IMG/VR virus record: IMGVR_UViG_2690316131_000020
DNA from: a virus
Lineage: Duplodnaviria > Heunggongvirae > Uroviricota > Caudoviricetes
Length of the DNA stretch: 8,206 nucleotides
Reading direction: 5' to 3' (one strand)
Under the pieces are notes generated by a model, which saw only the letters and a program-made list of their open reading frames with translations, searched no databases and had not been told where the DNA came from. A program made the translations under genes and the position numbers. Each line of letters starts with the position of its first letter. The first letter of the stretch is position 1. Positions 1-8,206 of the stretch are shown in pieces.

Positions 1-942
1 CTAAATAGGCTGATTCGATGTGTTTACGGGAAAAAAATCGGCCCAGATCCGCGAAATTTTAATCAGCGAGTCAGCTTGGGAAGAAATGACCTGCTTATTC
101 GCACCTTCCCTAACCGCTCCTGATTCGGTTTTTATTACCGCCTCATCAGTTGGAGTTATAACCGTGGCTTCAACGTTAATAATCAGCTTTTGAGCGTCTA
201 TCAGCATCATGCGATCCGCCTGTTCGCTCACAATTACCGGTATTCTCAAAAGCTCTATCTGCCAGAACTCAGCATTAGTAAGCTGTAAGGCGTTTTCTAC
301 GGGCAAGATTAGCGACGACGTGGCAAGCGTGTTACCGTTCGCTATGTGCTTTTTGAAAAGCTCTATGAAGTTTTCGGCCTCATCAGCACCATTAAGCACG
401 CCCTCAGGGGATACGCCCGCCAACTCCTGGTCACTGGAAAGAAATTTTTTATCTATTTCTTTCACCGATTCCGATGTGATCAAGTCTCTGATCGCTGAAT
501 TGGTACCAGGGGTGCTAAATTTGATTAGCTCGTTATTCAGCATCACAATAGCGCCGAGTTTGTACAGTTTTAGCGAGCTTTCGCTTACTTCTCCCCCTTT
601 TACTGGGATTTCTTCGGCCTCTTTAAGCCATTTACTCCCCTTGCCTGATATTGATTGCAATTTTGCGCCAAAGGGAAGATTAAGCGCACTACTGATTAAC
701 TTGCCAGGTACAGACTGCGAAAAAATATACCCGCCCAGCTCTCTTGCTATCGGCTCAGCCACCAGCGACGGAAGGTTATCCGTGTTCATTCCTGCTACTA
801 CGGATTTTTCAAGGAATAACGAGACAGCCGGATCATTTCTTTTCGTCATCTCTATAGCGTCAGCATGGCTAAATTTACACGATGCCAGCACGCTGGCGGC
901 GCGAACTGCTGACACGCCTTTCATGTTTTTACAGATCATCAT
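1..942 (-). CDS. Putative major capsid protein, HK97-like fold (313 aa); family assignment tentative
   Basis: Complete ORF with TAG stop at 1-3 and ATG at 940-942, preceded by a strong SD (AGGAGGAGGAAG directly upstream). It lies downstream of the terS-like gene. The segment KEIDKKFLSSDQELAGVSPEGVLNG resembles the conserved FL-GDG-G-P-G-L region of HK97-family capsid proteins, and size and composition fit. No Walker A motif, so TerL is unlikely. Confidence 0.5.
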   Translation of the reverse strand: MMICKNMKGVSAVRAASVLASCKFSHADAIEMTKRNDPAVSLFLEKSVVAGMNTDNLPSLVAEPIARELGGYIFSQSVPGKLISSALNLPFGAKLQSISGKGSKWLKEAEEIPVKGGEVSESSLKLYKLGAIVMLNNELIKFSTPGTNSAIRDLITSESVKEIDKKFLSSDQELAGVSPEGVLNGADEAENFIELFKKHIANGNTLATSSLILPVENALQLTNAEFWQIELLRIPVIVSEQADRMMLIDAQKLIINVEATVITPTDEAVIKTESGAVREGANKQVISSQADSLIKISRIWADFFPVNTSNQPI

Positions 943-1090
943 CTTCCTCCTCCTGGAAGCACGGTGTTAGTGTTTCGTGAAAATATGGCATCAGAATAGC
1001 GGCGGCCTGTAACCGTATTTCGGTCGGCTGCTGCTTGTCGTTCATGATTTCCGTTAGTACCTCGATCGGGTCTGTTATGTATTCGCTCAT
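929..1090 (-). CDS. Small hypothetical protein (53 aa, MSEYITDPIEVLTEIMNDKQQPTEIRLQAAAILMPYFHETLTPCFQEEEDDDL)
   Basis: Below the ORF-track length cutoff; found by manual translation. ATG at 1088-1090 with GAGG about 10 nt upstream, overlapping the TerS stop. Its stop overlaps the start of the capsid-like gene (ATGATGATCTGTAA), suggesting translational coupling. Acidic C-terminal tail. Confidence 0.3.
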   Translation of the reverse strand: MSEYITDPIEVLTEIMNDKQQPTEIRLQAAAILMPYFHETLTPCFQEEEDDDL

Positions 1091-1101
1091 AGTTCGCTAC
1101 C

Positions 1102-1590
1102 TCAGTGTTTTAGGGCTGTTGGTGGCTTAGGGATGGGAAAGCGGTTTGATGAAACATTGGTAGCATTGAGTTTTTTTACCTCTTTTTTACCAATGCTGCT
1201 GATCTTGCGGTGGGTGAACTGGGCCAGCTTAAACGCGGCATCTAAAGCCAGTTTTGGATCTGTGTCCATGTTGTCAATCAGTATCCTGCCCATTGCTTTG
1301 ATGGGGTCGGGTAGGCCGTTATCCATCATCTCAATGGTGTTAATTGATGCCCGTTCCGGTGTAACTTTTTCGGTAACTTTCTTTGTAACTTTTTTCGGTT
1401 TTGTAACCTGAAAAGTTACATCAGAAGTTACAGCCTTAAGATACTTTTTCACCTCAGGATCATTGGATAGCTGCCAGCCTTTAACCCTTGCGGTCTTTTC
1501 GCTGTATCCCGCATGTATAGCGGCTTCCGTGGGATTTGCGCCCCTTGATAACGCATCAGCAAACCGCTTTTTTTTGGTCGTTAATGCCAT
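1102..1590 (-). CDS. Terminase small subunit homologue (162 aa)
   Basis: N-terminus MALTTKKKRFADALSRGANPTEAAIHAGYSEKTARVKGWQLSNDPEVKKYL matches the conserved HTH region of phage TerS proteins (KQ-F---Y--G-N-T-AAI-AGYS-KTA). ATG at 1588-1590 with GAGG 7 nt upstream. The longer track ORF (to 1728) would use GTG without an SD and overlap the upstream gene, so the ATG start is preferred. Confidence 0.7.
   Translation of the reverse strand: MALTTKKKRFADALSRGANPTEAAIHAGYSEKTARVKGWQLSNDPEVKKYLKAVTSDVTFQVTKPKKVTKKVTEKVTPERASINTIEMMDNGLPDPIKAMGRILIDNMDTDPKLALDAAFKLAQFTHRKISSIGKKEVKKLNATNVSSNRFPIPKPPTALKH
1361..1431. repeat. Cluster of GTAAC/GTTAC pentamer repeats inside the terS-like gene (4 direct plus 2 inverted copies); further copies upstream at 1613-1635
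   Basis: Plus-strand GTAAC at 1361, 1373, 1385 and 1403; GTTAC at 1415 and 1427. These encode the repeated KVT motif (VTFQVTKPKKVTKKVTEKVT) in TerS. Two more GTGTAACTTTT copies lie in the noncoding leader at 1613-1623 and 1625-1635. Confidence 0.55.
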
Positions 1591-1717
1591 GCAAAAACCT
1601 CGTTTTGAGGGGGTGTAACTTTTCGTGTAACTTTTTTGAAAAGCAAAATTTTCTACGAATGAGACGGGGGGCGGTGTCCAGGGCGATCGACTTTCCGGCC
1701 GGAACACTCCCCCCCTG

Positions 1718-1879
1718 TCATTGCTCACCGAGTAACGAGATCAGGCCTTCAACTTCATCACTCAGCTTGTTTATTCGTGTCTCAAGCTCTGCGATCTTTT
1801 CCATCAATGGCGCTATGGTGTCTCTTGTTTCCTCGCCAATGGCTTTAATGATGCTTGCCTCGCGTTCTGTGATAGCCAT
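1718..1879 (-). CDS. Small hypothetical protein (53 aa, MAITEREASIIKAIGEETRDTIAPLMEKIAELETRINKLSDEVEGLISLLGEQ), likely coiled-coil
   Basis: Below the ORF-track cutoff; found by manual translation. ATG at 1877-1879 with GAGG about 10 nt upstream. Tight junction with the upstream ORF stop (TAA ACA ATG). Heptad-like helical sequence. Confidence 0.4.
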   Translation of the reverse strand: MAITEREASIIKAIGEETRDTIAPLMEKIAELETRINKLSDEVEGLISLLGEQ

Positions 1880-1882
1880 TGT

Positions 1883-2077
1883 TTACGCCTCACTTGTTGC
1901 AATGCCCAGGCGTTCGCGTAACAGTACGCGCGCAAGATGCCCTATTGTTGGTGTTGCCGCCCTGCCGTAGATACCTGATTCATTCATCCGGCGCACAATA
2001 TCGAACTGCAACTTTTTAAGCTCGTTAAGGATTTCATGATCAATCATCACGGTAGCGCTTTGCTTTATCTCTTCCAC
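1883..2077 (-). CDS. Small hypothetical protein (64 aa), GTG start
   Basis: GTG at 2075-2077 preceded by a strong SD (AGGAGA, 7 nt spacer). The internal ATG at 2047 has no SD. Sequence ...ILNELKKLQFDIVRRMNESGIYGRAATPTIGHLARVLLRERL could be a small DNA-binding fold, but this is not established. Confidence 0.45.
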   Translation of the reverse strand: MEEIKQSATVMIDHEILNELKKLQFDIVRRMNESGIYGRAATPTIGHLARVLLRERLGIATSEA

Positions 2078-2164
2078 TTTGTTTTCTCCTGATACTTATC
2101 ATTGCATAACCAGTATTTTCGATAGATTATCATTAATTAACCATCTTTGAAGATATATGAGATC

Positions 2165-2189
2165 GAAAAAAAGCCGGATTGCTCCGGCT
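2165..2189 (-). terminator. Intrinsic terminator (minus strand)
   Basis: On the minus strand: 7 bp stem AGCCGGA / TCCGGCT with a 4 nt loop, followed by a run of 7-8 U. It lies about 20 nt downstream of the stop of the 81 aa ORF. Confidence 0.6.
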
Positions 2190-2207
2190 ATGTGCTCACT
2201 TCTTCGG

Positions 2208-2453
2208 TTATTCTCCAGCGCTTTTAACGTTGATGGTTGTTACCTGTTCCGCTTCGGCAATCTCCCGTTCTGTCAGCGTGGCAAAGTTTGCCGCCGCTGT
2301 GGTCATGAATGCGCTTATCAGTTCGGGATGCTCCTTCGCGTATCCTTCCCCCGCGTGGCGGTCTATCGTTCTGATTGCCACCTTTAAGGAAAGCTCTGTC
2401 ATGTCTAACGCTTTATATTTTGGCGCTGTCTTATCTCTGGTTTTTCTGTTCAT
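2208..2453 (-). CDS. Hypothetical protein (81 aa)
   Basis: ATG at 2451-2453 with GGGGAG/GGGGA SD-like sequence upstream (derived from the iteron sequence). Followed by a strong intrinsic terminator. No recognisable motif. Confidence 0.45.
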   Translation of the reverse strand: MNRKTRDKTAPKYKALDMTELSLKVAIRTIDRHAGEGYAKEHPELISAFMTTAAANFATLTEREIAEAEQVTTINVKSAGE

Positions 2454-2657
2454 TCCCCACTACTCCCCACTTTTGCTCCCCACTTTTTGAAATTACCCAC
2501 CGTCTCCCCACCTCTTTTTTTTGTGATTCTAACGTTATGTTTTTCAATATGTTTTTTACTCCCCACTTTTTTGGGTATATACAGGTGGGAAAGTGGGTAA
2601 TTATGTTTCAATTTTGTTAAATTCCCCACTCCCCCCACTTTTACTCCCCACTTTTTA
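2453..2657. repeat. Iteron array flanking an AT-rich stretch: candidate replication origin of the element
   Basis: About 9 direct copies of (T)CCCCAC(TTTT) (cores at 2455, 2465, 2477, 2495 degenerate, 2507, 2561, 2624, 2633, 2646) plus inverted copies at 2584-2597 (GGTGGGAAAGTGGG). They flank an AT-rich segment at about 2513-2557 that includes a T8 run. The array starts at the 3' end of the replication initiator gene, as in SaPI/PICI-type origins. Confidence 0.6.
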
Positions 2658-4055
2658 CAGCGGGCGCACGTCATCACCGTCAATAACGATTACGCCATCA
2701 TTTTCCAGCTTGTACAGCCAGCGCCGGAAGTGCTTCATCTCATACCCCAGCTTTTTCATATCGTCGCGGAGAAGGGCGATAGTGCACGCCTCCCCGTGTG
2801 CTGTTCGTGTTCTGATGCACTGCCATAGCGCGGCGTGATTCTCCGTCTTGTTCCCTGCCTCCTCGATGCGCTCCAGTTCAACGGGAGGGCGCGGCTTATC
2901 CACCACCACCAGCGACGTGATTAACTCCCCGTCAGCGTCGGTAAAAAGCTCCACCACGCGTAAGTCATATGCTGCTTCTTTGAGTTCCTCCGCGTCCTTC
3001 ATTTTGGTACATGAGATAACCAGCGCTTCGCTGCCTGCGTCCTCCCTGCGTATCCGGTATTCGGCGTCCAGTGATGCACGAAATGCACTGGAACCACGCG
3101 CCCCCTTTGTTTCATCCTTGCCGGAATGGTGAACCACCAGCACCGTTGCCCCTGTGCGCCGTTTCAGTTCGTCACACCCACGGATAAACGCCCCCATATC
3201 ACGGGAATCATTTTCATCATTGCCGCCAAAGCAGCGCGCCAGCGTATCCAGAATAATCATTCGAACCGGTTTACCCGTTTCCCGTTCCACCTGACGGGCA
3301 GCGATAACCATTTCCTCAACATCAAGCGGGGCAGCCGGAAAGATGGGACGGTTTACCAGATACAGATTTTTCACCTGCTCATCGTGCACAACCTCCCAGG
3401 CTTTTACACGACGCGGAACACCTATACCGCCTTCACCAACCACATAGAGAACCGCACCATGTGCAACCCTGCTGCCTCCCCACTGGCGACCAGTGGCAAC
3501 ATGGCACGCCCACGATCCGGCAAGGAATGATTTATAGGACCCGCTAGCCCCGTATATGCTGCATAGCGATACCGCCGGAATAATCCCCTTAACCACGTAA
3601 TCCAGTTGCGTGTCGTATCCGGTAGATCCAACGCTCATCGGTAGCGTGGTTTTTCGCTGGTGGTTTTTTTCTTCCGCCGGCTCTTTCCCGCGCACCCGTT
3701 CCAGGTATTCGCGCCAGTTCTCCCGCATATGGCTGTGCATCCCTTCGGGGTAATAATTCGCATCAGTTACACCCGCCGCCGCCAGCTTGTGCGCAATGGC
3801 ATTAATATTTGATGGCCTGATGTGGCCTGCCTTGTACAGCCGGACACAATAGCGCCCCTCGTCGATGATTCTCAGGTCTGCCAGTTCATCCAGTTGATCA
3901 TCAGCCAGCACAACGGGAGGCACATTATCGCCAGCCAGTCGCCCGTCCTGTTCCTGCCACTGTTTCGCATGTGCCCAGGCATCACTACCCGCAAAAATAA
4001 TGACTTCGGTCATCTTGTCGTAAGGCTGTTTTTTTAAGTTCGGTGCGCTTTTCAT
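2655..4055 (-). CDS. Replication initiator / helicase-like protein (466 aa): RecA-fold RepA-type (AAA_25-like) ATPase core, N-terminal domain of uncertain type, C-terminal winged-helix-like tail
   Basis: Walker A GASGSYKS, Walker B-like RMIILDTLARCF, and VLVVHHSGKD typical of RepA / DnaB-like loader ATPases. ATG at 4053-4055 with AGGGG SD (6 nt spacer). ATGA overlap with the upstream 99 aa ORF. The iteron origin follows immediately downstream. Confidence 0.85.
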   Translation of the reverse strand: MKSAPNLKKQPYDKMTEVIIFAGSDAWAHAKQWQEQDGRLAGDNVPPVVLADDQLDELADLRIIDEGRYCVRLYKAGHIRPSNINAIAHKLAAAGVTDANYYPEGMHSHMRENWREYLERVRGKEPAEEKNHQRKTTLPMSVGSTGYDTQLDYVVKGIIPAVSLCSIYGASGSYKSFLAGSWACHVATGRQWGGSRVAHGAVLYVVGEGGIGVPRRVKAWEVVHDEQVKNLYLVNRPIFPAAPLDVEEMVIAARQVERETGKPVRMIILDTLARCFGGNDENDSRDMGAFIRGCDELKRRTGATVLVVHHSGKDETKGARGSSAFRASLDAEYRIRREDAGSEALVISCTKMKDAEELKEAAYDLRVVELFTDADGELITSLVVVDKPRPPVELERIEEAGNKTENHAALWQCIRTRTAHGEACTIALLRDDMKKLGYEMKHFRRWLYKLENDGVIVIDGDDVRPL

Positions 4056-4351
4056 TTCTTGCCCCTGAATCCGTTAACCATGGTTTTCAGCTTCTGGATG
4101 TTTGCCCGTGCCCTGGCGTTGCTGGTGGGCACGTTATGCGGCGCGGTCTGTACCAGAGAAAAATCACGCCGGAACTGATAAACAGGCATCACGCAATCAT
4201 ATTCGTAACCTTCACGGCGGTAAGTTACGCACCGTCCCGCCACGCCCTTAATCATTACCGTGCCGCCGTACTGGTCGCGGTAAATATCACCGCGCATAAA
4301 TTTAGGGTGAGTGTTGCCACTGGCAGTTAAGCCAGAATATTTAAGTTTCAT
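4052..4351 (-). CDS. Hypothetical protein (99 aa), translationally coupled to the replication initiator
   Basis: ATG at 4349-4351 with GGAGA SD (about 10 nt spacer). Its stop overlaps the rep start (ATGA). Motif DIYRDQYGGTVMIKGVAGRCVTYRREGYEYDCVMPVYQF; family not identified. Confidence 0.6.
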   Translation of the reverse strand: MKLKYSGLTASGNTHPKFMRGDIYRDQYGGTVMIKGVAGRCVTYRREGYEYDCVMPVYQFRRDFSLVQTAPHNVPTSNARARANIQKLKTMVNGFRGKK

Positions 4352-4356
4352 TATTT

Positions 4357-4591
4357 TTATTCTCCGGTGTGCTGTTCGTTATATCTGTCGTGCAATGTCT
4401 CTATTTCCTGCAACTCATTTATTACAGGCTCAAGAAGCGTTATTAATGATGTAATAATCCGCGTTTTTTTTTGCATTACGTTCATTATCGCCAAAGGATT
4501 CAAGGCACATCCGCAATATTTCGTACATACCTTCAGCGTAAGCAAGGGCACTAAATGCGCGGTCTATTGTTTCAAGATAAATATCACGCAT
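4357..4591 (-). CDS. Small protein encoded in two overlapping frames joined at an A9 tract: frame 1 from ATG 4591 ends at 4430 (53 aa); the +1 frame continues to a stop at 4357
   Basis: ATG at 4589-4591 with GGGGA SD (5 nt spacer) gives MRDIYLETIDRAFSALAYAEGMYEILRMCLESFGDNERNAKKNADYYIINNAS. The overlapping frame (...QKKTRIITSLITLLEPVINELQEIETLHDRYNEQHTGE) lacks a good start but ends 5 nt before the next gene's ATG. The T9/A9 run is at 4464-4472. Confidence 0.35.
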
Positions 4592-4592
4592 A

Positions 4593-4814
4593 TTAATCCC
4601 CGTCCGTTGTTTTTCTTAAAACAGCTTCTGTCACGAAATCAGCATAGTTAGCGGCAATATCAAGAATATTTAGCCCTGTACCTCTGTGCTCATCAGTGCA
4701 AAGAAAGAAAAAAGCCACCCGCATAATTTCAGATATTGACGAAAGCGCATCAGCCGCATCATCAGGAACGCCGGAAAATTCTTGTTTCAGGGAATTAAAA
4801 CGATCATCACGCAT
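4593..4814 (-). CDS. Small hypothetical protein (73 aa, MRDDRFNSLKQEF...)
   Basis: ATG at 4812-4814 overlapping the stop of the upstream ORF (ATGCGTGA), with a G-rich SD-like run upstream. The track ORF was trimmed to this start. Confidence 0.45.
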   Translation of the reverse strand: MRDDRFNSLKQEFSGVPDDAADALSSISEIMRVAFFFLCTDEHRGTGLNILDIAANYADFVTEAVLRKTTDGD

Positions 4815-5028
4815 AACCCCCCCCATTTTCACAATCAGCAACAAGAATATTTTTAGCGTCATTCAGCGACCGCGTTGCGATGTATCGGATACATTCCAGG
4901 GCGAACGTTGTCCGGTCTTTCTGTTCTTCTCCCTGCGCAAGCTCTGCCGTGCATTCAATATCAATAAGCGCGTGCATCAGCGTAGTGAGCGCGGCGGCGG
5001 CTGCGTCCGGTGTGGTTTTATTGCACAT
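4807..5028 (-). CDS. Small hypothetical protein (73 aa, MCNKTTPDAAAAALTTLMHALIDIECTAELAQ...)
   Basis: ATG at 5026-5028 with a strong SD (AGGAGG, 6 nt spacer). Overlaps the 3' end of the upstream small ORF by 11 nt. Confidence 0.5.
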   Translation of the reverse strand: MCNKTTPDAAAAALTTLMHALIDIECTAELAQGEEQKDRTTFALECIRYIATRSLNDAKNILVADCENGGGYA

Positions 5029-5209
5029 GGCACACCTCCTGACGAATACGGGCGGCGAATACAGCAACACAACCGGACGGGCAACGGCTACGTGCTTCGC
5101 GTTCCGTCCAGGCGGTTACGTGGATGATTTGATGTTCTGACGCGCCAAAGATGATAAAGCGCCAGAGAAAGGCGGTTTGAGAATGTACAAGGGTAGGGAT
5201 AGTAGCCAT
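5018..5209 (-). CDS. Small protein, copy A of a tandem paralogous pair (63 aa, MATIPTLVHSQTAFLWRFIIFGASEHQIIHVTAWTE...)
   Basis: ATG at 5207-5209 with a strong SD (AGGAGG, 8 nt spacer). The N-terminal 15-20 codons are paralogous to the ORF starting at 5578, with differences mostly at third codon positions. It is the 3' part of the long 409-codon track ORF. Confidence 0.55.
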   Translation of the reverse strand: MATIPTLVHSQTAFLWRFIIFGASEHQIIHVTAWTEREARSRCPSGCVAVFAARIRQEVCHVQ

Positions 5210-5369
5210 GTTGGCAGCCTCCTCAGTGTGGTTAAGATAACCGCCACCGGAAACGCCAATTTCGCTGGTGGCGGACTGTACAGGGTTGGCGTAACCGGAC
5301 ACTGAAGAAACCGGCGCGGATTGCTCCGCCCCCGTACAGCCCACCATTGATAAGGTGTGACTATGCGGC

Positions 5370-5395
5370 ACAAAAAAACACGCGGGGCGCGTGTT
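5370..5395 (-). terminator. Intrinsic terminator-like hairpin plus U7 (minus strand), inside the stop-free frame between copies B and A
   Basis: On the minus strand: stem ACACGCG / CGCGUGU with loop CCC, followed by 7 U (the complement of the plus-strand A7 at 5372-5378). Confidence 0.4.
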
Positions 5396-5578
5396 ATGCG
5401 CTTCAGTTTTGCCCAGGACGCCAATCCCGGCACCCGTTTTATGAGGTGCGCGGGAATCATAGCTATTTTCGACACTGGCGATCAACTGGTTTTTTTCTCC
5501 GATATTCAGGGCCAGAAAACGCCACACAAAGGCCGTTTGTGTGTGTACAAGGTGTGGTATATGATTTACGGCAACCAT
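5396..5578 (-). other. Copy B of the tandem paralogous leader ORF (MVAVNHIPHLVHTQTAFVWRFLALNIGEKNQLIASVEN...); no in-frame stop before copy A
   Basis: ATG at 5576-5578 with AGGAG SD (5 nt spacer). Paralogous to copy A. The frame stays open through a terminator-like hairpin into copy A, so its real 3' end and coding status are unresolved. Confidence 0.3.
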
Positions 5579-5666
5579 AACGGCTCCTAGTTTACGTTGT
5601 TGGTTAGACGCCCCGTATGTGTTCCCAGCACTGCGGGGCGTTGATTTTTGTGTAATGGCAAGTACA

Positions 5667-5711
5667 ATGGTAATTACCATGTAGGTATAGTAATGAAGGG
5701 TAATTACCATG
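5667..5711. promoter_or_regulatory. Two palindromic operator-like sites in the divergent control region: ATGGTAATTACCAT (5667-5680, perfect 14 bp palindrome) and AGGGTAATTACCAT (5697-5710), with a -10-like TATAGT at 5686-5691
   Basis: The perfect palindrome is repeated 30 bp downstream, where it overlaps the start codon of the Arc-like gene. An AAGGG SD lies 8 nt before that ATG. The sites sit between the plus-strand RHH gene and the minus-strand leader ORFs. Confidence 0.5.
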
Positions 5712-5882
5712 TCAACACCATTAGAAAAACGTTCGCCTCCATACCAAATGCGATTACCGGAAGACTTCAGAGCGCAGCTAGAAGAAGCAGCTAAGGCCGA
5801 TGGCGACACATCTTTAGCCACTTGGATTAAACGCGTTCTCCGCAAAGAATTACAGCAACGCGGCATAGAACCCAAAGGATAA
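5709..5882 (+). CDS. Arc/MetJ-type ribbon-helix-helix DNA-binding protein (57 aa), candidate repressor
   Basis: Below the ORF-track cutoff; found by manual translation: MSTPLEKRSPPYQMRLPEDFRAQLEEAAKADGDTSLATWIKRVLRKELQQRGIEPKG. The RLPE-D/E-L...EAA...G-x-T/S...I...L pattern is typical of Arc-like RHH domains. An in-frame stop lies just upstream at 5694, and the palindromic operators overlap its promoter and start. Confidence 0.7.
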   Translation: MSTPLEKRSPPYQMRLPEDFRAQLEEAAKADGDTSLATWIKRVLRKELQQRGIEPKG

Positions 5883-5924
5883 AAACTATCAGCGCCGTGG
5901 TGTGAGGTATTACGGCGCATTGCT

Positions 5925-6113
5925 ATGCAGGACAACACAATGACCGATAAAGAATTGACCAAAACATTATCACCGGCACGGAAAAGACGGCGCAGAAAGA
6001 TAGAGCATGAATCAGAAAGATTCGCGCCATGTGCTTTTGCCCTTGAGCAATTCCTTAAAGAGTACAGGGAAAAGCGCTCATTGCAGGTATGGCAACGAAC
6101 TGAACCAGACTGA
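5925..6113 (+). CDS. Hypothetical small basic protein (62 aa); weak call
   Basis: ATG ORF downstream of the Arc-like gene and upstream of the terminator at 6209-6235, but with no convincing SD. The antisense frame is part of the rejected 409-codon ORF. Confidence 0.25.
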   Translation: MQDNTMTDKELTKTLSPARKRRRRKIEHESERFAPCAFALEQFLKEYREKRSLQVWQRTEPD

Positions 6114-6208
6114 TTGCATTGCCCACCAGCCTGATAGCGGCTATCATCCCCGTGCTTATGTTTGGGATCACATACACATAAGGCGCAGCGGGTTAATTGT
6201 TCAGAAAG

Positions 6209-6235
6209 GCGGCTCCATATCGGGGCCGCTTTTTT
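6209..6235. terminator. Intrinsic terminator, probably bidirectional, between the convergent plus-strand RHH operon and minus-strand alpA
   Basis: Stem GCGGCUCC / GGGGCCGC (8 bp with one G-U pair), loop AUAUC, then T6 on the plus strand. On the minus strand the same hairpin is followed by CUUUCU. It lies about 30 nt downstream of the alpA stop. Confidence 0.6.
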
Positions 6236-6261
6236 CGTGTTTGTCATATCTGTGATACCCG

Positions 6262-6468
6262 TTAAGCAGCCGTTCCGCGTGCTTCCTCTTCGCGTTCTTT
6301 CTGCCAGGACAACACATCATCCTCATACCATCCGCGACGGCGTAAACCAACGCGAAAACCCTGCGGAAATTCTCCGGCGTTGATCATGCTTTGCAGCGTG
6401 CTGTCTGCCTTGATGTGGATAATTTTTTTTACTTCCTGGCGAAAGATAATTTTTCTGATTGCTTCCAT
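6262..6468 (-). CDS. alpA: AlpA-family phage transcriptional regulator / excisionase-like HTH protein (68 aa)
   Basis: Motif ...FRQEVKKIIHIKADSTLQSMINAGEFPQGFRVGLRRRGWYEDDVLSWQ matches the AlpA family signature (G-K/E-FP...R..GW.E.D...W). ATG at 6466-6468 with AAGGT SD. Positioned two genes from a P4-type integrase. Confidence 0.85.
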   Translation of the reverse strand: MEAIRKIIFRQEVKKIIHIKADSTLQSMINAGEFPQGFRVGLRRRGWYEDDVLSWQKEREEEARGTAA

Positions 6469-6554
6469 CGTGATTTACCTTGTGAATCCGGTGTATTCCG
6501 GTGACAAATACGGTAAATCATCGGATATGGGTAAAAACAGTTCCCACCGTTTTT

Positions 6555-6572
6555 AAACGGTATACACCGTTT
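6555..6572. promoter_or_regulatory. Perfect inverted repeat AAACGGT-ATAC-ACCGTTT upstream of alpA, within direct repeats CACCGTTTTT (6545-6554 and 6565-6574)
   Basis: 7 bp arms with a 4 bp spacer, about 90 bp upstream of the alpA start codon and flanked by T-runs. Could be an operator or a weak plus-strand hairpin. Confidence 0.3.
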
Positions 6573-6601
6573 TTTATATTGATGATTTGAAATGGAATTA
6601 T

Positions 6602-6624
6602 AAAAAAAGCGGCATTTCTGCCGC
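6602..6624 (-). terminator. Intrinsic terminator (minus strand) after the 83 aa ORF
   Basis: On the minus strand: stem GCGGCA / UGCCGC with loop GAAA, followed by U7. It lies about 12 nt downstream of the ORF stop at 6636. Confidence 0.55.
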
Positions 6625-6635
6625 TTCCAGGATTG

Positions 6636-6887
6636 TTACCGCCATTTTTTGGGCCTGCCTCCGATCTTCATAGATGCCGGACGTACGACCTTATCAATAC
6701 TTACCGCCAGATTTCTGGAAGCGCCACGGGATACCAGAAAATCTACTACCTGTTTTTTTGATGGGGCCGTCGTTCTGTCCTCCGGATCGTAGGTTGACCA
6801 AAATTCATGCTGAACCATCAGGGCCAGTTGCAGCCCGTCGCAATTGCATCTGATATTTTTTTGCATCTTAACGGTTTCATGTTTCAC
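6636..6887 (-). CDS. Hypothetical protein between integrase and alpA (up to 83 aa; start uncertain: GTG 6887, ATG 6866 or ATG 6818)
   Basis: ORF with a basic C-terminus (GGRPKKWR), followed by an intrinsic terminator. No candidate start has a strong SD. Confidence 0.4.
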   Translation of the reverse strand: MKHETVKMQKNIRCNCDGLQLALMVQHEFWSTYDPEDRTTAPSKKQVVDFLVSRGASRNLAVSIDKVVRPASMKIGGRPKKWR

Positions 6888-6911
6888 GGCCTTGTCGTTA
6901 AATTTGATGCA

Positions 6912-6963
6912 ATTATACGACGGTTTTACATGGTTTTCGTAGTTTTTACTGGTTTTCTGTACA
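6912..6963 (-). promoter_or_regulatory. Candidate promoter: perfect TATAAT (minus strand, plus coordinates 6912-6917) preceded by phased A/T tracts with about 10 bp period (6921-6960)
   Basis: Plus strand shows GGTTTTACAT GGTTTTCGTA GTTTTTACTG GTTTTCTGTA, four T-tracts in helical phase (curved-DNA or UP-element-like), directly upstream of a consensus -10. Lies in the 77 bp gap between the integrase stop and the next ORF. No good -35. Confidence 0.35.
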
Positions 6964-6964
6964 G

Positions 6965-8206
6965 CTACACGGCTCGGATACCCCTTTTACCACTGGCGAG
7001 GGTTACGCCCGTCGCCGCAGCCTCGACAAATTCGCCCCACCAGCGCATCAGCACGATGCGTTTTTCTATGTAGTTGCTCCGGTTGTATGCCCGTCTAACT
7101 TCGTTGGTGTCGACGTGGGCAAGTGCCGCCTCTATTACGTCCGGCTCGAATCCTTCCTCGTTCGCTGCTGTGCTGAATATGGCGCGTAATCCATGAGACA
7201 CCAGCACGCCAGCGAATCCCATACGCCGCAATGCTGCGTTAGCTGTCTGGCTGTTCATCGGCTGCTGTGGGTCTTTCAGACTTGGGAAAACGTAATTGCG
7301 GTGGTGGCTGATTGGTTTCATGGCCTCCAGCACCGCCATAGCCTGACCGGAAAGCGGGATAACGTGATCCCTGCGCATCTTCATGCGTCCGGCAGGTATC
7401 GTCCATTGCTTCGCGTCCAGGTTGATTTCATCCCACCGCGTTGATGACGCTTCGGCGGGACGGGTTACGGTCAGTAACTGCCATTCAATCAGTAATCTGG
7501 TCTGCCGTTCTGTTGCCGATACTGATAAAGCCTGCATAAGCTCGGGCAGCTGTTCGGGGCGGATTGTTGGCATATGTTTTTTTACAGGTGAGGGAAACGC
7601 CTTACGCACATTCATAGCCGGATTGGCATCAATCAGCCCACTGTTGGCGGCGTAATCCATTACCTCATTAACGCGCTGTAAAACCCGCTTGAGTGTTTCC
7701 AGGTTGCCGCGCTCCTTGATGGGGGTAAGCACTTCAACGAACCTTCGGGCGGTGAGGGTATCTATTGGCGTGTTGCCGATGAACGGGAATACATATTTAT
7801 CCAGCGAACGCCAGATGTCTTTAATCGTGTTGGGGGCCAGATTCTGGCTGATTTTCACCTGGTACCATGCCGCCGCCACATTTTCGAACGTGTTCCCTTG
7901 TCTTCGGGCCTCTGTCTCTCTTTTTTGCCTCTCGTGGTCCTGCGGGTCAGTTCCGGCACTGATTAACGTCCTGTACTCGCTACGGCGTTTTCTGGCATCA
8001 GCCAGGGAAACATCTTCAAGCGATCCAAAACTCAGCAATATTCTTTTTTTGTCCGATGGTCGGTAGTAGGAAAATCTCCAGAGTTTTGATCCAGACGGTT
8101 TGACCAGGAGAAAAAGCCCTCCGCCGTCCTGCAGGGTGTACTCCTTTTGCGCTGGTCTGGCTGCTTTGATCTGCACTGTGGTTAATGGGTGTGTTTTTCT
8201 CGCCAT
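6965..8206 (-). CDS. int: Tyrosine recombinase / integrase, P4-like family (413 aa)
   Basis: N-terminal arm-binding-type region (TLQDGGGLFLLVKPSGSKLWRFSYY). C-terminal catalytic motifs HGLRA and LAHVDTNEVRRAYNRSNY (H-x-x-R and catalytic Tyr). ATG at 8204-8206 is the last triplet of the window, so its upstream signals are not visible and a longer N-terminus cannot be excluded. Confidence 0.9.
   Translation of the reverse strand: MARKTHPLTTVQIKAARPAQKEYTLQDGGGLFLLVKPSGSKLWRFSYYRPSDKKRILLSFGSLEDVSLADARKRRSEYRTLISAGTDPQDHERQKRETEARRQGNTFENVAAAWYQVKISQNLAPNTIKDIWRSLDKYVFPFIGNTPIDTLTARRFVEVLTPIKERGNLETLKRVLQRVNEVMDYAANSGLIDANPAMNVRKAFPSPVKKHMPTIRPEQLPELMQALSVSATERQTRLLIEWQLLTVTRPAEASSTRWDEINLDAKQWTIPAGRMKMRRDHVIPLSGQAMAVLEAMKPISHHRNYVFPSLKDPQQPMNSQTANAALRRMGFAGVLVSHGLRAIFSTAANEEGFEPDVIEAALAHVDTNEVRRAYNRSNYIEKRIVLMRWWGEFVEAAATGVTLASGKRGIRAV

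Follow-up and report, generated by a model that had tools for sequence, protein, structure and literature searches.

Introduction

The classical or 'Type A' phage-inducible chromosomal island (PICI) is made up of an integrase, an AlpA-type regulator, a replicase, a capsid-morphogenesis gene and terS, the gene of the small terminase subunit TerS (de Sousa et al., 2023, PMC10085698). The capsid-morphogenesis gene was described as 'more frequent in Proteobacteria', and Escherichia coli accounted for 97% of those elements in which all five components were found (de Sousa et al., 2023, PMC10085698). Among the catalogued islands, EcCI11368.1 is listed at AP010953.1 3041660-3050231 (8.5 kb, 'yejM-luxR'; Table S1 of Fillol-Salom et al., 2018, ISME J, PMC6092414), and the same yejM site also hosts EcCI11128, EcCIED1a.1, EcCIATCC25922 and SdCI1012 (Fillol-Salom et al., 2018, PMC6092414). 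Here we analyse a stretch of 8,206 nucleotides (nt) from IMG/VR virus record IMGVR_UViG_2690316131_000020, referred to as a whole as the window, which probably represents a nearly complete classical Gram-negative PICI of the catalogued EcCI11368.1 type, working by the mechanism proposed below.

Several described satellites bear on the genes of this element. In SaPIbov5, the protein Ccm has the HK97 fold, is 24% identical to the helper capsid protein, occupies the pentons and forces the formation of small isometric heads (Hawkins et al., 2021, PMC8569155). PmCI172 of Pasteurella multocida is a Gram-negative PICI of about 8 kb, which carries a homologue of the major capsid protein and makes small capsids (Fillol-Salom et al., 2018, PMC6092414). 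EcCICFT073 has a helper-like cosN beside a satellite-specific site, and its Rpp, bound to the phage TerS, recruits the helper terminase (Fillol-Salom et al., 2019, PMC6739421). The capsid-forming PICIs (cfPICIs) carry capsid, protease, portal and head-tail connector genes together with HNH, TerS and the large terminase subunit TerL, and measure about 15 kb (Alqurainy et al.); the SatelliteFinder model gives them 11 core components (de Sousa et al., 2023, PMC10085698). Moreover, an arrangement like P4 CI/eta and P1 c4-icd has previously been noted for Gram-negative PICIs (Tommasini et al.).

The element in the window shares with EcCI11368.1 the insertion site, the gene order and about 98% nucleotide identity, but differs from it by an ISKpn26 insertion in the capsid gene, a frameshift in a small open reading frame (ORF) and a diverged terS/orf53/capsid allele. 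Its size is near the 9.5-kb median of the Type A PICIs, its terS precedes the capsid-like gene, which is the less common order, and its replicase is a RepA/AAA_25 helicase without a recognisable primase domain (compare de Sousa et al., 2023, PMC10085698). Like SaPIbov5, the island has a lone HK97-fold homologue of the helper capsid protein (24% identity for Ccm, 23% for the island protein), which by analogy might redirect capsid size; the putative helper capsid protein is here fused to a protease, a part that the island protein does not have. The helpers of SaPIbov5 are cos phages of the HNH type, and the putative helpers of the island, phages related to those encoding Shiga toxin (Stx), likewise carry HNH, as judged by their gene order. 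SaPIbov5 is not known to encode a TerS and depends on a copied helper cos site, whereas the island has a TerS of its own. PmCI172 resembles the island in size and capsid homologue, but host, helper type (a contractile-tailed phage) and sequences differ. The packaging logic that we propose is the one described for EcCICFT073 and Rpp, except that EcCICFT073 has no TerS, whereas the island has a genuine TerS of the Terminase_2 family. Similarly to P1 immI (C4 RNA - icd - ant) and P4 CI, the island carries an isrK/a1b1-type element, a C4 RNA and an icd-like gene in an Ash/Eta-like ORF; downstream of its C4-icd unit, however, lies the replication operon and not an antirepressor, and the island adds a candidate Arc-like repressor and operators.

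Identity and insertion site of the island

Positions 110-8206 of the window are about 98% identical to a block of the E. coli O26:H11 11368 chromosome. A block with this degree of identity is present in 165 complete E. coli genomes, and several O26 strains are among the top matches. Since the O26 interval that matches the window has the catalogued coordinates of EcCI11368.1, and since all five core components of a classical PICI are present (the capsid gene being truncated in this copy by an insertion sequence, IS), the window was assigned to a PICI of the EcCI11368.1 type. The novelty of the element itself is low, as it is listed in the 2018 catalogue and its architecture is the standard enterobacterial PICI model; a literature search found no paper specific to the O26 copy.

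The genes follow each other on the minus strand in the order P4-type integrase, AlpA-like regulator, immunity region, RepA-type helicase, iteron origin, TerS, a gene of 53 amino acids (aa) and the HK97-fold capsid homologue. Every long gene lies on this strand, and the plus strand carries a single small operon. The original prediction, made from the letters of the sequence without database searches, had proposed the order int, small ORF, alpA, rep, iteron origin, terS and capsid and had recognized in it the layout of a PICI. Family scans and the ORF map confirmed this order, and the five core components together with the identity to EcCI11368.1 bear out that this is a satellite of phages laid out like a PICI. 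As in classical PICIs, the integrase (413 aa; 6965-8206, minus strand) is located at one end of the element; it adjoins tRNA-Pro. It has the domain set of a P4-type tyrosine integrase (Arm-DNA-bind_3, Phage_int_M and Phage_integrase, E 5e-23 to 6e-29), as had been predicted, and its gene is 100% identical at the nucleotide level to that of EcCI11368.1. The AlpA-like helix-turn-helix (HTH) regulator or excisionase (68 aa; 6262-6468, minus strand) matches a PHROG family 'excisionase and transcriptional regulator' (E 2.5e-6), while Pfam Phage_AlpA reaches only 17.9 bits, under the cutoff of 21.

In O26:H11 11368 the island sits between tRNA-Pro(GGG) (proL) by yejM and the yejO pseudogene. The source contig of the window (CYDD01000010.1, GCA_001284925.1) has the same flank order as O26:H11 11368, namely yejK-yejL-yejM-tRNA-Pro-int, with tRNA-Pro(GGG) 218 nt past the window edge on the int side; a tRNA scan found none inside the 8,206-nt window, the nearest lying just outside. 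By comparison with the empty site of K-12, the junctions between chromosome and island lie at the 3' end of tRNA-Pro, in CTCTCGTG(CCGA)CCAAA, and the attachment site is the tRNA-Pro 3' end. A perfect 26-nt direct repeat, which is a doubled CGTATAACTAAA motif, was found near both ends of the O26 island (14614-14639 and 23160-23185 of the retrieved O26 locus), and its two copies coincide exactly with the catalogued island ends. Because the K-12 empty site lacks this doubled repeat and the crossover falls at the tRNA-Pro 3' end, both copies must lie inside the island; they probably serve as arm-type integrase sites, and the published 'att core' of EcCI11368.1 at the yejM site appears to be such an internal repeat and not the crossover. 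This reading agrees with the attP regions with a 'doubled motif' noted by Tommasini et al. Measured between the empty-site junctions, the intact element has a size of about 8.8 kb, compared with 8.5 kb in the catalogue. The expectation that the flanks would reveal attachment sites at a tRNA 3' end next to int was correct, but the further head genes that had been looked for there are missing from the intact O26 element. A complete prophage with tail and lysis genes was not found around it either; the intact element is bounded by yejM/tRNA-Pro on one side and by yejO on the other.

The divergence of the window from the O26 element is mosaic. Identity is essentially 100% at positions 1710-3310 and at 4910-8206, where int, alpA and the immunity region lie, and differences of 2-11% from EcCI11368.1 are found in the terS-orf53-capsid module and in parts of rep. 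The terS/orf53/capsid module is a diverged allele (89-96% nucleotide identity to EcCI11368.1), and since it is the most diverged part of an otherwise near-identical element, its pattern suggests that the packaging module has been swapped between alleles by recombination.

The capsid homologue and its disruption by ISKpn26

Positions 1-109 of the window represent the right end of ISKpn26 (IS5 family) inside the capsid-like gene, as shown by a 100% match beside an annotated ISKpn26 transposase. The terminal inverted repeat of ISKpn26 ends at 109 and island homology begins at 110, with CTAA at 110-113 as the presumed IS5-type target site. The sequence of positions 1-109 is found at 5603 places in E. 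coli genomes (on chromosomes and plasmids, with 96-100% identity in the matches listed) and also in P1-like phages; in strain ML35 it lies directly 3' of an annotated ISKpn26 transposase gene. The 313-aa ORF in which the original prediction had seen an HK97-like capsid protein is therefore a chimera, consisting of 277 native codons (112-942, minus strand; codons 1-277 of 307) and 36 IS-derived codons at its end, and its stop codon comes from the IS. The exact chimeric protein occurs on one contig, CYDD01000010.1, which ends one base past the ORF, inside the IS. More generally, an ORF that touches a contig end warrants a check for IS-derived codons.

The fold itself was correctly predicted. O26:H11 11368 encodes a 'phage major capsid protein' of 307 aa, with which residues 1-277 share 94% identity; the native protein thus has 307 aa, the last 30 of which are missing in this copy. 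Since the structure model predicts that the fold ends with beta strands made by these missing residues, the capsid homologue is probably inactive in this genome. An alignment of four sequences gave an unusable model of the protein (predicted local distance difference test, pLDDT, 42), so that an alignment of 32 homologues was used instead (pLDDT 90.4; predicted template modelling score, pTM, 0.86). With this model, Foldseek returned HK97-fold capsid proteins at probability 1.0, including those of HK97, 80alpha/SaPI1, P2 in the P4 procapsid and the SaPIbov5 procapsid with Ccm. Stx1a/Stx2 lambdoid phages encode a protease-capsid fusion of 645 aa, and in tblastn the native protein aligns end to end with its residues 291-633 (23% identity); the island homologue is without the protease and scaffold half of this fusion. 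A word-indexed protein search gave only 3 clusters of homologues, and an exhaustive HMMER scan was required, which revealed a distinct clade of stand-alone capsid proteins of 315-330 aa. In the intact element of O26:H11 11368 no island gene follows the capsid gene, beyond which lies the yejO junction. A Ccm-like role of the island protein, that is, the redirection of capsid size, seems to us about as likely as not.

Relatives of the capsid protein were also seen in other settings. A 51%-identical homologue on a contig from SRR25033244 is the last island gene before the chromosome and lies beside a type III secretion cluster; this contig breaks just upstream of it. On a 9.3-kb contig from SRR32866296, another small element of satellite-like type combines int and AlpA with a D5-type primase-helicase, a portal gene and a protein closely related to the short capsid protein, with no TerS called, and the late zone of such satellites combines head genes in several ways. 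At another locus, a relative of the cassette capsid is followed within about 450 nt by a second P4-type integrase, which opens a new satellite-like set of genes (Terminase_2/DUF3950, DUF4222), and the whole looks like a tandem satellite array. Finally, a 5994-aa protein matches the capsid profile at positions 233-273 (40 residues) in 23 separate places and appears to be a giant repeat protein with a short motif common to the capsid clade.

TerS, its 53-aa paralogue and a candidate cos site

The gene described as TerS-like in the original prediction proved to encode a TerS of the Terminase_2 family (162 aa; 1102-1590, minus strand; E 1e-10), which matches phrog_641 end to end (E 2.6e-43). Its best relatives among E. 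coli phages are the TerS proteins of the Stx1a/Stx2 lambdoid phages, with 45.7% identity in tblastn and 49% over the aligned length in an alignment. The identity is unevenly distributed: it reaches 63% for the N-terminal HTH and 70% for the core, but the linker has no more than 15%. Between terS and the capsid gene lies a 53-aa gene (929-1090, minus strand), which is a paralogue of the conserved central TerS segment (phrog_641 positions 89-126, E 1.3e-6); its product and the TerS core have the motif TDP..L...MND..P.E.RL.AA..LMPYFH in common. This is the conserved middle gene of a terS / small ORF / capsid cassette. A diverged cassette in another element has the same order of terS, an ORF of about 51 aa and capsid at about 50% identity, and its small ORF is 51% identical to the 53-aa protein. 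Searches of PDB sequences returned only weak matches to TerS N-termini for TerS, nothing for the 53-aa ORF, and no Rpp entries. Between this copy and EcCI11368.1, the genes of the cassette are all under purifying selection, with ratios of nonsynonymous to synonymous substitution rates (dN/dS) of 0.08-0.15 (0.15 for capsid, 0.08 for orf53 and 0.09 for terS).

A non-coding segment ahead of terS (1649-1715, minus strand) has a conserved counterpart between HNH and terS in lambdoid Stx phages and is a candidate cosN-type cleavage site. In this segment a G-run and a C-run flank CGATCGCCC.GGACACC, and the similarity to the phage region, with 67 nt at 79% and a 30-nt core at 93%, is far above the coding similarity. 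A search detected the segment in 78 phage records; one is from a Salmonella phage, and the other 77 are from Stx-converting phages or from other phages of E. coli and enterobacteria. Among the phage matches listed it falls in unannotated sequence. Just upstream of the terS start, two AAAGTTAC repeats with 12-nt spacing (1615-1634, minus strand) constitute a candidate cosB-like site, and three further AAAGTTAC repeats with the same spacing in the terS linker (1361-1392, minus strand), with GTAAC/GTTAC copies nearby, are candidate TerS recognition repeats. There are six copies of AAAGTTAC in the window compared with 0.2 expected, and at the equivalent place the Stx phage has five TGTTAAC repeats instead. 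From this arrangement we infer a helper-type cosN beside satellite-specific TerS binding sites. The literature offered no usable mapped cos ends for these Stx phages.

Replication module

The replicase (466 aa; 2655-4055, minus strand) is a replication initiator/helicase of the RepA (AAA_25) type (AAA_25 E 2e-43; phrog_2850 over its full length), which the Prokaryotic Genome Annotation Pipeline (PGAP) names 'helicase RepA family protein'. Family scans detected AAA_25 only and no D5/primase-helicase or recognisable primase domain, in agreement with the earlier assignment to the RepA-type ATPases and not to the P4 alpha primase-helicases. Directly 3' of the rep stop lies the replication origin (2454-2652, minus strand), in which two clusters of (A)AGTGGGGA iterons surround an AT-rich spacer; it contains six exact AGTGGGGA copies, compared with 0.16 expected in the whole window. 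The island therefore has its own replicase with the origin immediately 3', as classical PICIs do. On the other side of rep, a DUF4222 protein is encoded (4052-4351, minus strand; E 1.5e-23), the stop codon of which overlaps the rep start codon.

Immunity and regulatory region

Scans with Rfam, Pfam and NCBIfam uncovered two RNAs and two ORFs that the original prediction did not contain. A C4/CI-type antisense immunity RNA (5264-5351, minus strand; Rfam RF01695, 77.6 bits with a gathering score of 45, E 2.4e-14) is accompanied by an isrK-like RNA element, of the type of the seqA/a1b1 target (5373-5449, minus strand; Rfam RF01394, 66 bits with a gathering score of 50). A terminator scan located an intrinsic terminator within the isrK element (5395-5377, minus strand). 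Both RNAs are enclosed by an Ash-family ORF (5240-5581, minus strand; Pfam Phage_ASH E 1.8e-16), which is in frame with a gene of 63 aa similar to the Icd host cell division inhibitor (5018-5209, minus strand; NCBIfam phage_ICD_like E 1.4e-15), and the joined pair matches the 188-aa phrog_29966. If G-U pairs are allowed, all 12 nt of the C4 RNA loop are complementary to ACACUGAGGAGG, which lies over the Shine-Dalgarno sequence of the icd-like gene; there, ACACTGAGGAGG (5218-5229, minus strand) is, from its pairing with the loop, a candidate b2-type target. A duplex scan with the whole C4 RNA was uninformative, as its GC-rich stems pair everywhere, and a search with the loop pattern only was used. 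A pairing of the C4 loop with the icd-like Shine-Dalgarno sequence is suggestive only.

On the plus strand, a 57-aa protein (5709-5882, plus strand) is a candidate ribbon-helix-helix (RHH) repressor of the Arc-like type (phrog_228 'Arc-like repressor' E 1.5e-6; Pfam Arc E 0.038), and its ORF was called as a gene in the source assembly. The RHH regulator of the original prediction does exist, but it runs opposite to the main gene set. Two (A/G)TGGTAATTACCATGT palindromes, 30 nt apart (5666-5715), were detected by repeat search and promoter scan. They overlap face-to-face promoter-like sites, and the start codon of the RHH gene overlaps one of them; the same region is found at 20557-20603 of the O26 locus, corresponding to 5666-5712 of the window. 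RHH gene and palindromes look like a repressor-operator switch for the minus-strand replication operon. Downstream of the RHH gene follows a 62-aa ORF (5925-6113, plus strand; phrog_21027 E 1.6e-15), and the terminator scan identified a stem-loop with T-runs on both strands (6203-6235) as a bidirectional terminator, which separates alpA from the plus-strand operon.

Alternative readings of the locus

The original prediction had favoured a capsid-forming satellite, that is, a cfPICI which builds its own small heads and steals only the tails of its helper. TerS and an HK97-fold capsid protein are indeed both carried, and the left half with int, alpA and rep is common to cfPICIs and classical PICIs. 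The intact sister element, however, ends right after the capsid gene at about 8.8 kb, without protease, portal, connector/adaptor, HNH or TerL, which refutes the capsid-forming type for EcCI11368.1, whereas real cfPICIs reach about 15 kb with their 11 core components. The cfPICI genes for protease, portal, head-tail connector/adaptor, HNH and TerL are likewise absent from the window, and neither the ORF and family scans of the window nor the annotation of the intact sister element and its flanks revealed genes for a portal, connector, tail, holin or other lysis function; the size also agrees with the 8-12 kb of classical PICIs. As the downstream flank of the window itself is hidden by ISKpn26 and the contig break, the exclusion of a cfPICI rests on the sister element. 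We regard a cfPICI as highly improbable here; a lone capsid gene together with terS does not make a capsid-forming satellite. A P4-like satellite dependent on a P2-type helper can hardly be credited either. The P4-type integrase, the presence of AlpA and the CI/C4-type RNA inside an Ash/Eta-like ORF are all reminiscent of P4, but other Gram-negative PICIs also have such an integrase and CI-type RNA immunity, so that neither is diagnostic. Moreover, the island has no sid, psu, delta, epsilon or alpha primase-helicase, its Rep is an AAA_25 protein, and the relatives of its TerS and capsid protein are lambdoid and not P2-like; the earlier statement that this is not a classical P4 was therefore justified. 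Scarcely more probable is a decayed prophage remnant instead of an autonomous satellite. Such a remnant would account for phage-type genes and for the IS insertion and frameshifted small gene of this copy, but not for precise, tRNA-bounded ends with internal doubled arm-type repeats, for the same compact unit in 165 genomes, or for an own replicon and origin and genes under purifying selection, and fragments of tail or lysis genes are missing.

A more serious alternative, although in our view still an unlikely one, concerns the capsid homologue, possibly with the whole terS cassette. It might be a captured late gene of a helper, without influence on capsid size or serving only as a dominant-negative decoy that disturbs the assembly of helper heads. 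PICI late zones have been described as captured helper late genes (Tommasini et al.), knockout of the capsid gene of EcCICFT073 had no interference phenotype, and the disrupted form is tolerated in this genome. On the other hand, the dN/dS of 0.15 and the persistence of the cassette with full-length homologues that are as little as about 50% identical point to a selected function, an identity of 23% to the nearest E. coli phage capsid argues that a capture was not recent, and a distinct clade of stand-alone proteins of 315-330 aa exists.

Likely helpers and proposed life cycle

For the classical PICI of the EcCI11368.1 type that we prefer, lambdoid Stx1a/Stx2 prophages with an HNH - TerS - TerL - protease-capsid fusion module are the likely helpers, because the homologies of TerS, of the capsid protein and of the cos-like segment point to this one phage group. 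The gene order of these relatives is HNH - TerS - TerL - protease/capsid - portal, and a helper-type module and the island are co-resident in at least strains H19 and RM6927.

The life cycle might proceed as follows. The Arc-like repressor, bound to the two palindromic operators, would keep the island quiet, and the C4 RNA would block the ribosome-binding site of the icd-like gene in the manner of P1 and P4 and, together with the isrK terminator, stop transcription of the downstream replication operon. A helper phage would then trigger AlpA-dependent expression and excision by the P4-type integrase, and RepA would fire the adjacent iterons. The island TerS might bind the AAAGTTAC repeats beside a cleavage site copied from the helper and recruit the helper TerL and HNH nuclease, by which island DNA would be packaged. 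The capsid homologue, having no protease or scaffold part, could co-assemble with the helper capsid protein in the manner of SaPIbov5 Ccm, resulting either in small heads or in disturbed helper assembly. By way of speculation, the 53-aa paralogue of the TerS core might bind the helper TerS or TerL.

Taken as one device, terS, the TerS-core mimic of about 52 aa and the scaffold-less capsid gene could form a hijack kit directed against HNH-type lambdoid Stx phages. In it, TerS would redirect TerL and HNH to the copied cosN and the private AAAGTTAC sites, the mini-protein would poison or capture the terminase in a Ppi/Rpp-like manner, and the capsid protein would act like Ccm. We put this combined proposal forward as a tentative one and think it rather doubtful that all of it applies.

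Several observations weigh against parts of this picture. Induction, helper identity, cos site and capsid size are all deduced from homology and position. The AlpA-like regulator is the weakest of the five PICI components, given its sub-threshold Pfam and modest PHROG scores. The whole window shows no enrichment of the degenerate pattern that can pair with the C4 loop. The HTH of the island TerS is still 63% identical to that of the putative helper, so that an altered DNA specificity is hypothetical, and the conserved segment upstream of terS could instead be a regulatory element. Helper-type modules are common, being present in 1255 of 5426 E. coli genomes (23%). A Ccm-like role has to be reconciled with a capsid gene that is disrupted by the IS in this genome and yet tolerated, and a genome of 8.8 kb is small even for a T=4 head. 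Deletion of the capsid homologue of a different PICI, EcCICFT073, did not relieve phage interference, so that any role of such capsid genes is putative.

The discovery value of the locus is small, since its five-component architecture is the SatelliteFinder definition of enterobacterial PICIs. The residual interest lies in the putative link to Stx-converting helpers and in the conserved mini-ORF of the cassette. If the hijack kit operates as outlined, such islands would lower the output of Stx phages in enterohaemorrhagic E. coli (EHEC) strains of O26, O111 and O157, and if Stx phages are indeed the helpers, the islands could influence the spread of Shiga toxin phages.

Remaining small ORFs

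A 409-aa ORF on the minus strand (6247-5018) was rejected as a gene, as it is antisense to the two plus-strand ORFs and crosses the promoter/operator region. The frame also spans the immunity RNAs, only its last ~187 codons match protein families, and pieces of it are annotated by PGAP as Icd-like and ash pseudogenes. PADLOC found no defence genes among the small ORFs or in Rep.

Next to int, a small ORF (6636-6887, minus strand) encodes 83 aa from a GTG start (76 aa as annotated elsewhere) and is followed by a terminator on its 3' side (6628-6605, minus strand). Between the origin and terS lie three ORFs. An 81-aa conserved protein (2208-2453, minus strand) matches phrog_1231 (E 5.8e-48), a 64-aa ORF (1883-2077, minus strand) is present in the ORF list and annotated in O26, and a 53-aa ORF upstream of terS (1718-1879, minus strand), also annotated in O26, has no significant family match and reads as helical or coiled-coil from its sequence.

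Two overlapping small ORFs of 89 aa and 87 aa (4593-5070, minus strand) match phrog_24341, phrog_2512 and phrog_5146. Near 4824, between two small ORFs, the window has one base less than EcCI11368.1 in a G-run (G8 compared with G9). The neighbouring homologue of phrog_2196 (4357-4591, minus strand), which is an intact 77-aa gene in EcCI11368.1, is split into two frames in this copy by one additional base in an A-run. The differences in the A-run and the G-run could be real changes or homopolymer errors of a draft assembly.

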